Source of the DNA: a bacterium
Lineage (GTDB): Bacteria; Babelota; Babeliae; Babelales; JAUWHS01
Length of the DNA: 38,231 nucleotides
Direction of reading: 5' to 3'
NCBI GenBank assembly: GCA_043818275.1
Contig: JBDRFY010000079.1
Location: forward strand, 1-38,231
Position 1 is the first letter of the stretch. Each line of letters starts with the position of its first letter. This document shows, one piece after another, positions 3,001-6,000 of the stretch. A program made the position numbers.

Positions 3001-6000
3001 TTTGAATAAGTTTGTTTTTCTACTTTTTTGAAACTTTTGTAAATAAATTTCTGCAAAAGCTTTTTAAATAAATTTTTATTTTGGTATTTCATTGAAAATC
3101 TGAATTCTTCTGCGCAAAGGCCTCGCGCCTGTATTATTAAATCTTTTTTTAAATTTAATTTTTGTATAGCTTTTAAACTTATAAAACCGGCCAGTGGCCC
3201 ACGTGCAATAATTTTTTGAAATTCTAATTTGGCTAATATTTTAATTAATTGTTTTTGAGGGTAAAAAAGAGTTGTTTTACCTAAAAAAGGGAGTTTTTTT
3301 GCAAATATAAAATTTATTTTAGGGTGAAAAGGAGACTGAATATTTTTTAAACGAAAATCTTCAAAAGATATAATTGTTATTTGTTGATATGTATTATTTT
3401 TAATTAATTTGATTAATGGTTGAAAAACCTGACTTTCAAAAACAGAATTATAGATGCTGTCATATAGTATAAAGATTAAATTTTTAGACATTTGTTTATG
3501 CCTTAAGATTTTTAGATTAAAATTAATTTTTGTCATAAATTATAGATGTTTTGAAATTTTTTAAAATTAAAAGGCGGATTGTTTATGAAGTTTATAAAAT
3601 CTTTTGAAGCAGTTGGATTGAAAGATATTCCATTGGTTGGTGGAAAAAATGCGTCGTTGGGGGAAATGATAAAAAATCTTTCACCTCAGGGAATTTTAGT
3701 CCCTTTAGGCTTTGCTGTTACCTCTCAAGCTTATTGGCATTATTTAAAACAAAATAAATTGGATGATAAAATTAAGAATCTGTTGAATCAATTGGACAAA
3801 AAAAATAAAAATCTAAAACAGCTTGAAAAAGTTGGAAAACAGATTCGAAGTTTAATTGAAAAAGCCACGTTGCCAAAAGATCTGGAAGAACAAATTGTGG
3901 ATGCTTACGAGGAACTTGAGAAAAAGTATGGTAAAAATTGTGATGTGGCTGTCCGCTCTTCCGCGACAGCCGAAGATTTACCAGAAGCTTCTTTCGCGGG
4001 GCAGCAAGAAACCTTTTTAAATATTCAGGGGCAAAAAAACTTATTGGACGCCTGTAAAAAATCTTTTGCATCGCTTTTTACAGATCGTGCAATTTCATAC
4101 AGACAAGATCATGGTTTTGATCACATGGATGTTGCACTTTCAATTGGGGTGCAAAAAATGGTTAGATCTGATCTTGCAAGCGCTGGAGTTATTTTTACTC
4201 TTGATACCGAATCAGGTTTTAAGGATGTTGTTCTTATAAATTCTTCTTATGGCTTAGGGGAGTCAGTTGTAAAAGGTGTTGTTAATCCTGATGAATTTTA
4301 TGTCCATAAACCAACTTTGGAAAAAAATTTTAAACCTGTTTTGAAAAAACGCCTGGGAAGTAAAAAATCTAAATTAATTTATTCAAAAACAGGTGAAAAA
4401 ATAAAAACAGTCGCTGTATCTGAAAATGATCAAAAACTTTTTTCTTTAACAGATGAAGAAATTTTAAAGTTGGCAGAGCAGGCTTTGTTAATTGAAAAAC
4501 ATTATTCAAAAATTAAAAACCGTTGGATGCCGATGGATATAGAATGGGCAAAAGATGGTAAAGATGGAAAAATTTATATTTTGCAGGCTCGTCCTGAAAC
4601 CGTTCATTCTTTAGATTTAAATAAAAACTTTATTCAGGAATATGTTTTAAAAAAAGACAAAGATTTAAAAAATAAAATTTTGGTAACAGGAAAAGGTGTT
4701 GGCAGAAAAATTGTTTCAGGTATCGCCAGAGTAATTAATTCAGCTAAAGAAATATCAAAAATTAAAAAAGGTGAAATTTTAATAACAGATATGACTGATC
4801 CGGATTGGGAACCGGCAATGAAAATTGCAGCAGGTATTGTTACAAACAGAGGGGGTAGAACGTGTCACGCCTCAATAGTAAGTCGTGAATTAGGGATTCC
4901 TGCTATTGTTGGAACGCATGATGCGACTAAAAAAATAAAAACGGGCCAGCAAATCACAATTGATTGTAGTAGTGGAGAAACAGGAGTTATTTATTCTGGC
5001 AAAATTCCTTTTATAATTGAAAAAATTGAGTTAAAAAAATTACCAAAACCTCCAGTTGAATTAATGTTAAATGTTGCTGATCCTGATCAGGCTTTTAATT
5101 TTGCATTACTGCCCCAGGATGGAGTTGGGTTGGCAAGAATAGAATTTATAATAAATAATTCAATTAAAATTCATCCAAATGCATTAATTTATCCAGAAAA
5201 GATTAAAGATAAAAAAATAAAAAAGGAAATAGAGAATCTGACTTTTAGTTATAAGGATAAAAAACAATTTTATGTAGACACATTGGCTCAGGAAGCAGGA
5301 ACAATAGCGGCTGCTTTTTGGCCTAAACCTGTAATAATTCGTATGTCAGATTTTAAAAGTAATGAATATAGAGAGTTAATTGGTGGTAAATACTTTGAAC
5401 CTGAAGAAGAAAATCCTATGCTTGGTTTTCGGGGAGCTTGCCGTTATTACAACGAACAATTTAAACATGCTTTTGCACTTGAATGTTTAGCGATGAAAAA
5501 AATAAGACAAGAAATGGGATTAACTAATGTTAAATTGATGATACCTTTTGTCAGAACAATAGATGATGCAATGAATGTTATTAAAGAAATGACAAAATAT
5601 GATCTCGTGCAAAAAAAAGATGGTTTGCAAATTTATATGATGTGTGAAATTCCAAGTAATGTTTTATTAATAGATGATTTCAGTGAAATTTTTGATGGTT
5701 TTTCTATTGGTTCAAATGATTTAACTCAAACAATTCTTGCCGTTGATCGTGATTCGCAATTAGTCTCAAATCTTTTTGATGAAAGAAATAAAGCTGTAAA
5801 ATTAATGATGATGCAGGCGATTAAGGGCGCAAGAAAAAATAATAAAAAAATTGGAATTTGTGGTCAGGCTCCATCAGATTTTCCTGAACTTGCAGAATTT
5901 TTAATTAAACAGGGAATTAATTCTATTTCTTTGAATCCGGATTCTTTGTTAAGAACTTTGATTAAAATAAAATAGCACCTCAATTGAGGCGCTATTTTAT

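Follow-up and report, generated by a model that had tools for sequence, protein, structure and literature searches.

A PEP synthase as the only known exit from PEP to pyruvate in a Babelota genome, from a phylum sample in which no pyruvate kinase was found

Babelota are bacteria living inside protists. Sugar breakdown usually ends with pyruvate kinase (PK). A glycolytic phosphoenolpyruvate (PEP) synthase (PPS) of the heat-loving archaea Thermococcus kodakarensis and Pyrococcus furiosus was reportedly described by Imanaka et al. in 2006. The passages on these organisms in two published sources propose PPS as their main PEP-to-pyruvate step of sugar catabolism, and portray Thermococcus as retaining PK, drawing AMP from an ADP-dependent glucokinase and phosphofructokinase (PFK), and providing genetic proof (PMC8100219, PMC6474364). 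Such proof of a glycolytic PEP synthase comes, according to the relevant part of the first source, from Thermococcus only (PMC8100219), and the enzyme of Escherichia coli and Salmonella is treated there as gluconeogenic (PMC8100219, section 8).

CPR bacteria and Nanobdellota resemble the present case in that they have reduced, host-dependent genomes for which a PEP synthase (PEPS) has been proposed to interconvert PEP and pyruvate. As excerpted, Jaffe et al. (2020, PMC7304191) propose PEPS as a substitute in CPR bacteria without PK, which is present in about one third of CPR genomes (PMC7304191). The available sections of a preprint on Nanobdellota report PEPS in about 90-100% of genomes and a patchy PK (39 of 123 Woesearchaeales), and leave the direction open (bioRxiv 10.64898/2026.05.13.725050). 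Wolbachia wBm is also an intracellular bacterium without PK, and the relevant part of PMC4831766 describes it as lacking PFK too and reads it as living on host pyruvate. Unlike the genome studied here, it is described with a full gluconeogenic pathway, a TCA cycle and PPDK; here no fructose-1,6-bisphosphatase (FBPase) was found, and a water dikinase takes the place of PPDK.

For the phylum itself, the main text of the TM6 comparative paper proposes a route from glucose through pyruvate to lactate; PEP synthase is recorded for five of seven genomes in its supplement, along with one glucokinase (PMC4776705). No PK or PFK entry stands in the searchable files of that supplement; the genome-wide survey's note had found neither PK nor PEP synthase mentioned in the text of the paper. 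The accessible text of PMC4378268 and PMC6561590 does not mention pyruvate, and a literature search that most subscription journals lay outside turned up no paper reporting that this phylum lacks PK. Excerpts of PMC3812714, PMC7143001 and bioRxiv 10.1101/2023.07.03.547156 were also drawn upon.

The ppsA locus and the PEP-pyruvate node

The genome (94.16% complete, 92 contigs) carries ppsA, for phosphoenolpyruvate synthase (pyruvate, water dikinase), at 3585..5975 on the forward strand of the window, by which we mean the whole 38,231-nucleotide stretch of contig JBDRFY010000079.1 that was analysed. The open reading frame (3579/3585-5975) encodes 796 aa, and a purine-rich run resembling a ribosome-binding site precedes the ATG at 3585. 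Along the same strand, Pfam places the PPDK_N nucleotide-binding domain (3630..4637, aa 16-351), then the mobile phospho-histidine domain PEP-utilizers (4761..4976, aa 393-464, with the catalytic His428 codon at 4866-4868 and the Thr426 site) and then the PEP/pyruvate-binding barrel PEP-utilizers_C (5052..5957, aa 490-791, with the catalytic Cys759 codon at 5859-5861), which is the domain order that defines the family. The family models agree with Pfam, as the survey's note had held: the protein scores 1162 bits against NCBIfam TIGR01418 (cut-off 739.75) and 1172 bits against NF005057 (cut-off 598), and just 133 bits against TIGR01828 (cut-off 843), which separates it from PPDK (EC 2.7.9.1). 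The phospho-His (H428) and Cys (C759) motifs are intact, and each of the eight motifs examined occurs in all 30 orthologues compared. We take the patterns used for these catalytic motifs to be correct; the phospho-His and Cys ones are also visible in the alignment with the Neisseria PpsA structure 2ols.

The product is thus predicted to be an ordinary bacterial-type PEP synthase (PpsA, EC 2.7.9.2). It shares its three-domain architecture and catalytic motifs with E. coli PpsA (51% identity by tblastn) and with 2ols, and scores far over the family cut-offs. Its best solved relative is 2ols (899 bits), compared with 597 and 485 bits for the 24-chain PEP synthase structures 9dae and 8a8e, which we take to be archaeal. 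By this bit-score comparison with solved structures PpsA falls outside the archaeal multimeric PPS group, and the label 'archaeal-style' given earlier to this ending of glycolysis does not hold as worded. The sequence is uninformative on the direction of the reaction. A difference from E. coli is that PpsA here has no PK partner and that no PSRP regulator was found (PF03618 in 0 of 5 genomes; no match to an E. coli PpsR query in the genome itself).

A glycosyltransferase gene (2457..3536, reverse strand), divergent from ppsA, adjoins it in 17 of 30 loci, which suggests an old, stable locus, and an ATP synthase subunit a gene (6978..7838, forward strand) lies close to ppsA in 9 of 30; both serve as context only. 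No glycolytic operon was found in the gene neighbourhoods, where ppsA sits by the glycosyltransferase; in one relative (G099) ldh adjoins ppsA.

No PK was found in this genome with PF00224 or PF02887 at E<=10, or with an E. coli PykA query and two PK motifs. Across our phylum sample (201 genomes at least 85% complete, from 120 genera) PF00224 has a match in none, with 14 of 14 controls positive, which extends the earlier count of none in 31. Genome incompleteness therefore does not explain the missing PK. PpsA, by comparison, is over cut-off in 158 of the 201 genomes, with any match in 169 and no match in 32; these 32, of which 12 were identified by elimination, include every sampled member of three families. 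Enolase is present in 180 of 201, and counts made from the PpsA and enolase tables show that 7 of 168 genomes with PpsA lack enolase and that 19 of 33 without PpsA have enolase, several of the latter with low scores.

PpsA is the only known PEP-to-pyruvate exit in this genome, in agreement with the survey's note. Searches with E. coli PtsA, Pck, Ppc, MaeB, YdbK, AceE/F and PflD were negative, so that EI, PPDK, ATP-PEPCK, PEPC, malic enzyme, PDH, PFL and PFOR were not found by these queries, and a GTP-PEPCK motif, run without a positive control, had no match in the genome. Pyruvate carboxylase was considered and rejected: a biotin carboxylase and a carrier are present, but neither PycB/OadA nor a carboxyltransferase motif was found (motifs likewise run without a positive control). 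The two giant PPDK_N paralogues mentioned in the note exist, each with a nucleotide domain and His motif and with PPDK_N as the only Pfam domain. The PEP/pyruvate-binding barrel is absent from the 1715-aa frame on contig C5, and the 824-aa frame on C10 runs off its contig.

Enzymes upstream of PEP

Lower glycolysis down to enolase is present together with LDH, as had been described: E. coli queries detect PGK, GAPDH (G000:C50:27401-28420), TPI, iPGM and enolase, L-LDH is over the TIGR01771 cut-off, and a class I aldolase is also over cut-off. The genome further encodes PGI/PMI and PGM/PMM, transketolase, transaldolase, Rpe, RpiB, Prs and GpsA, the biosynthetic enzymes MurA, KdsA, KdsD, GlmS and GlmU, adenylate-kinase-family genes, a membrane pyrophosphatase-like protein, and an ATP/ADP-translocase family with five full-length matches and one broken. 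No glucokinase (ROK or Glk), no G6PD or Gnd and no match to the sugar-phosphate importer UhpT/UhpC were found in the genome, which leaves the uptake of host sugar phosphates put forward in the survey's note a conjecture. G6PD is also missing in its congener; over the phylum this irreversible oxidative entry step occurs in 144 of 201 genomes, and gnd adjoins it in 5 of 5 loci.

A PfkA-type or PPi-dependent PFK was rejected as the upper step, since PF00365 gives one weak match and none over cut-off in 201 genomes. The FBPase that a gluconeogenic trunk would call for was likewise not found in the genome for classes I, II, III, V or the IMPase type. Classes I and II are over cut-off in 0 of 201 genomes, with one weak sub-threshold match each, class III is absent from 5 of 5, and class V and the IMPase type were searched in this genome; an HAD-type enzyme may be present. 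A class I aldolase without a recognised PFK or FBPase implies that one aldolase partner is unrecognised, and the identity of that partner bears on the direction of flux. A TalC/Fsa protein was rejected as a fructose-6-phosphate aldolase bypass, as Glu and Phe replace the Gln and Tyr of E. coli FsaB, a replacement that marks a transaldolase. GAPN was also rejected, its sole ELGGK match being an ankyrin-like protein.

A candidate for the missing phosphofructokinase, judged from conserved residues and from its co-occurrence with the aldolase, is a formerly unannotated PfkB-family kinase (G000:C80:18722-19867, outside the window), whose gene lies by lon at 22 of the 30 loci compared. All 22 aligned sequences carry Gly in place of the motif-I lysine, and all have a lysine (Lys53) at the column of Pfk-2 Lys27; these are two of the residues by which we recognise the Pfk-2/LacC group. 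The Gly-for-Lys swap is described, in the relevant part of PMC6429617, as a Pfk-2 feature linked to the ketose 2-OH. The kinase further shares with E. coli Pfk-2 (PfkB) the ribokinase fold and the catalytic GxGD Asp, and differs from it in an invariant Arg137, an insert of about 40 residues, and the lack of Arg29 and Arg90 equivalents (Glu and Thr/Gly at those columns). It stays below cut-off against TIGR03168 (71 bits; cut-off 216) and the ADP-dependent R1P kinase model (87 bits; cut-off 500), has a better score against ribokinase than against Pfk-2, and in sequence as well as in predicted fold lies nearer to the ribokinases. That fold is a generic ribokinase, with Z 34-37 for many substrates and Pfk-2 absent among the 50 matches listed. 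The kinase may therefore act as a PFK without belonging to the Pfk-2/LacC group. For ADP-dependent sugar kinases, a loose motif run without a control gave two unverified matches.

Co-occurrence of modules and the direction of flux

Co-occurrence was assessed in an author-chosen panel of 80 genomes, comprising 51 with PpsA (match at E<=1e-190), selected so as to be spread over families, and 29 of the 33 genomes that lack it; the PpsA-less genomes G140, G152, G170 and G198, which are 85-89% complete, were dropped. GAPDH is present in 48/51 PpsA-containing versus 4/29 PpsA-less genomes, aldolase in 43/51 versus 3/29, the PfkB kinase in 42/51 versus 3/29 (single-protein query) and LDH in 30/51 versus 0/29, while the PEP consumer MurA is found in 51/51 versus 25/29. 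Because many of these genomes are kin and hence not independent, the counts make the association look stronger than it is. In 77 of the 80 genomes kinase and aldolase go together (both in 44, neither in 33), being jointly absent in four families of PpsA-containing genomes and jointly kept in three PpsA-less ones, and the pairing recurs in the seven genomes tabulated in the TM6 supplement, with both in five and neither in two (PMC4776705). All 48 panel genomes with both PpsA and GAPDH have either kinase plus aldolase or G6PD. Complementary loss of G6PD and the kinase was entertained and set aside, as 0 double losses in 48 against about 1-2 expected is too weak.

There are exceptions. Three genomes (G079, G090 and G168) retain kinase and aldolase although both PpsA and GAPDH are missing, which suggests that the retained pair can serve biosynthesis by itself. 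Three PpsA-containing panel genomes (G008, G057 and G052) lack GAPDH, and in the first two aldolase, kinase, G6PD and LDH are missing as well, so that PpsA cannot end glycolysis there. Four others (G029, G040, G066 and G082) have GAPDH and enolase without PpsA. The proposal that this ending of glycolysis is the rule in the phylum does not hold as worded: besides the 32 sampled genomes without a PpsA match and the three without GAPDH, L-LDH, the type counted here, has no match in 21 of the 51 PpsA-containing panel genomes.

The co-occurrence of PpsA with GAPDH and with LDH fits either direction of flux. The PEP synthase reaction favours PEP formation, with a dG'm of -13.3 kJ/mol given in the relevant section of PMC8100219, from which we derive a Keq of 0.21 M. 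Assuming adenylate kinase at equilibrium (K ~1), the reverse reaction needs a PEP/pyruvate ratio above about 430-4300 at ATP/ADP 10, about 40-390 at ATP/ADP 3 and about 4-43 at ATP/ADP 1 (50-5 mM Pi); at 10 mM Pi the respective thresholds are about 2100, 190 and 21. Adenylate exchange with a healthy host would put the cell near the first of these cases. The extra ATP claimed in the survey's note is therefore conditional, being feasible at low energy charge and only there, in a genome with five full-length translocase-family matches. The Thermococcus precedent invoked for it is borne out by the available parts of PMC8100219 and PMC6474364, and there AMP from ADP-dependent kinases overcomes this limit; the present genome differs in that PK is missing, PpsA is bacterial-type, an AMP-forming kinase is only hypothetical, and ATP/ADP translocases are present for host ATP.

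Gene content argues for a direction. Trioses can be made from above and no enzyme was found that returns them to hexose, so that an upward PpsA-GAPDH trunk would duplicate their supply; the two triose routes would be redundant and a reduced genome would be expected to lose one, yet the modules are kept together, which would favour downward flux. On balance we lean towards a trunk that runs mainly downwards, for which PpsA is the sole exit known, with an ATP yield only at low energy charge. The survey's reading of PpsA as running backwards thereby gains independent gene-content support as far as a downward pathway with a PpsA exit is concerned, while four parts of it fail as worded.

An anabolic PpsA, the enzyme's usual role and one resembling the Wolbachia model, is possible rather than probable. 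Imported pyruvate or lactate and stolen host ATP would here yield PEP for MurA and KdsA and, via the reversible trunk, DHAP/glycerol-3-phosphate and GAP. The thermodynamics and the translocases suit this role, as do the presence of MurA, KdsA and GpsA, the redox balance of a lactate-to-triose conversion by LDH and GAPDH, and the retention of PpsA in the three genomes without GAPDH. A D-cysteine-desulfhydrase-like gene in the window, with a score below cut-off, could supply the pyruvate, and Wolbachia without PFK and PK is read as gluconeogenic in the corresponding passages of PMC4831766. Against this role, MurA is kept in most PpsA-less panel genomes, which makes the main PEP consumer independent of PpsA, and ten of these, which also lack enolase and GAPDH, presumably import PEP. 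This role is further opposed by the failure to find an FBPase over cut-off in the searches above, by an aldolase that is tracked by a kinase and not a phosphatase, and by the rarity of PpsA without enolase.

A trunk that runs down to PEP only, for PGK-derived ATP, reducing power and wall precursors, seems unlikely. Surplus PEP would then be exported, dephosphorylated or used by some unrecognised enzyme, while PpsA would be a minor balancer. In favour of this, the ten genomes with MurA and no means of making PEP imply a PEP transporter in the phylum, four genomes have GAPDH and enolase without PpsA, and the genome studied has two uncharacterised HAD phosphatases; against it, intact PpsA accompanies GAPDH in 48 of 52 panel genomes (not a phylum frequency, the panel having been picked by PpsA status) and LDH was never found in the 29 without PpsA.

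From the observed gene inventory and co-occurrence we infer a kinase substrate, an imported sugar, a direction of flux and a valve behaviour that would fit the downward reading as follows. Hexose or pentose phosphates would enter via the PfkB-family kinase with class I aldolase, via the oxidative pentose phosphate pathway, or via both, and GAPDH, PGK, iPGM and enolase would produce PEP, some of which would be taken by MurA and KdsA. Surplus PEP, with AMP and Pi, would be converted to pyruvate and ATP through PpsA, and LDH, where kept, would draw pyruvate down and reoxidise NADH. As there is no PK, there would be no futile cycle and no need for the PSRP regulator, and energy charge would control the PpsA step like a valve. 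ATP would be made when AMP and Pi are high, with host ATP scarce or the cell outside its host, and the valve would stall or form PEP when the translocases hold ATP high.

A bolder version of this downward reading, in which the whole mesophilic, intracellular phylum lost PK ancestrally and runs a complete, so far unrecognised EMP pathway with net flux to lactate, from a new PfkB-type PFK (possibly AMP-forming, as in Thermococcus) and class I aldolase through an Asp32-less GAPDH to an ATP-yielding PpsA, is offered tentatively and is possible rather than probable. PpsA as a kind of enzyme is already known, and for reduced bacteria the conjecture that PEPS replaces PK has been published, namely for CPR bacteria in the excerpted text of PMC7304191, so that the novelty claimed for a bacterial phylum does not stand as worded. 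New are the clean loss of PK over the phylum as sampled, an LDH nested within PpsA, the failure to detect an FBPase, and a kinase that is a candidate for the PFK so far missing. Zero PK in 201 genomes, L-LDH nested inside PpsA-containing genomes and a candidate PfkB-type PFK also distinguish these bacteria from CPR bacteria and Nanobdellota. The phylum has cultured isolates as well as natural lineages without each module, which makes the question testable. A downward trunk, if true, would call for a revision of the view that these bacteria are nothing but energy parasites, and the 'missing PFK' gap may be closed by the orphan PfkB kinase; if PpsA is anabolic, the case shrinks to a Wolbachia-like variant, with the implied PEP importer as its remaining novelty.

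The cofactors of the two dehydrogenases bear on redox coupling. Selection of NAD or NADP by GAPDH follows rules at particular residues, and the NAD-selecting Asp32 is absent in 30 of 30 GAPDHs read, its place being taken by a hydrophobic residue or Thr together with Gly. The NAD site is mostly acidic in the 20 LDHs read. Coupling between the two enzymes is therefore uncertain. An NADP-specific GAPDH was not accepted despite the missing Asp32, since most of these proteins have an acidic residue at the S-loop position and the residue at the Arg77 position is variable, and GAPDH as the only NADPH source was dropped given the prevalence of G6PD in the phylum. As a side observation, one D-LDH-type gene was seen beside a GAPDH.

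A candidate upper-glycolysis kinase and the GAPDH cofactor site

An unannotated PfkB-family kinase adjoins lon on contig C80 of G000, the genome from which the window comes (C80:18722-19867; 3723-4868 of locus L065). Its presence or absence matches that of class I aldolase in 77 of the 80 panel genomes, which were picked by PpsA status and are partly kin. Sequence alignment further reveals a Gly/Lys swap resembling that of E. coli Pfk-2. These observations point to a candidate new phosphofructokinase. GAPDH is encoded at G000 C50:27401-28420 and at loci L083-L112. Asp32, the NAD-selecting residue, is absent from all thirty GAPDHs read, and the loop at this site is one residue longer in each of them.

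PEP supply and PPDK_N relatives

Nine genomes (G005, G006, G015, G021, G107, G139, G161, G165 and G184) each carry two full-length PpsA copies scoring over the cut-off. Ten others (G009, G012, G014, G026, G034, G097, G103, G111, G126 and G189) keep MurA with no match to PpsA, enolase or GAPDH. Because the known PEP-making route is absent from these ten, they presumably possess a PEP importer.

Two giant G000 proteins, one of 1715 aa (C5:3989-9133) and one of at least 824 aa whose frame runs off the contig (C10:9282-11753), each combine a PPDK_N domain with a phospho-His-like motif. Pfam found no PEP-binding barrel in either, the C10 frame being incomplete. Their N-termini appear signal-peptide-like by eye, and both are possibly secreted phosphotransferases.

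Pyruvate, alanine and biotin enzymes

The PLP enzyme encoded at 33399-34685 of the window falls in the D-cysteine desulfhydrase/ACC deaminase group, with scores under all cut-offs, and could be a minor source of pyruvate. Aspartate 4-decarboxylase (G000 C30:901-2541; over the cut-off), which converts Asp to Ala, is a pyruvate-independent route to alanine. A biotin carboxylase and biotin carrier are encoded at G000 C86:345-2386 (locus L196), for which motifs used without a positive control found no carboxyltransferase.

Other genes

As assembled, an in-frame stop divides pyrG (CTP synthase; G000 C36:7996-9732) between its two domains, a candidate real split, pseudogene or assembly error. The window also encodes a group II intron reverse transcriptase/maturase (484-1857; over the TIGR04416 cut-off) and a 316-aa ATP synthase c subunit (7825-8775) in which four hairpins are fused, seen as four Pfam stretches. 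The latter gene adjoins that of subunit a, and the F1 genes lie elsewhere.
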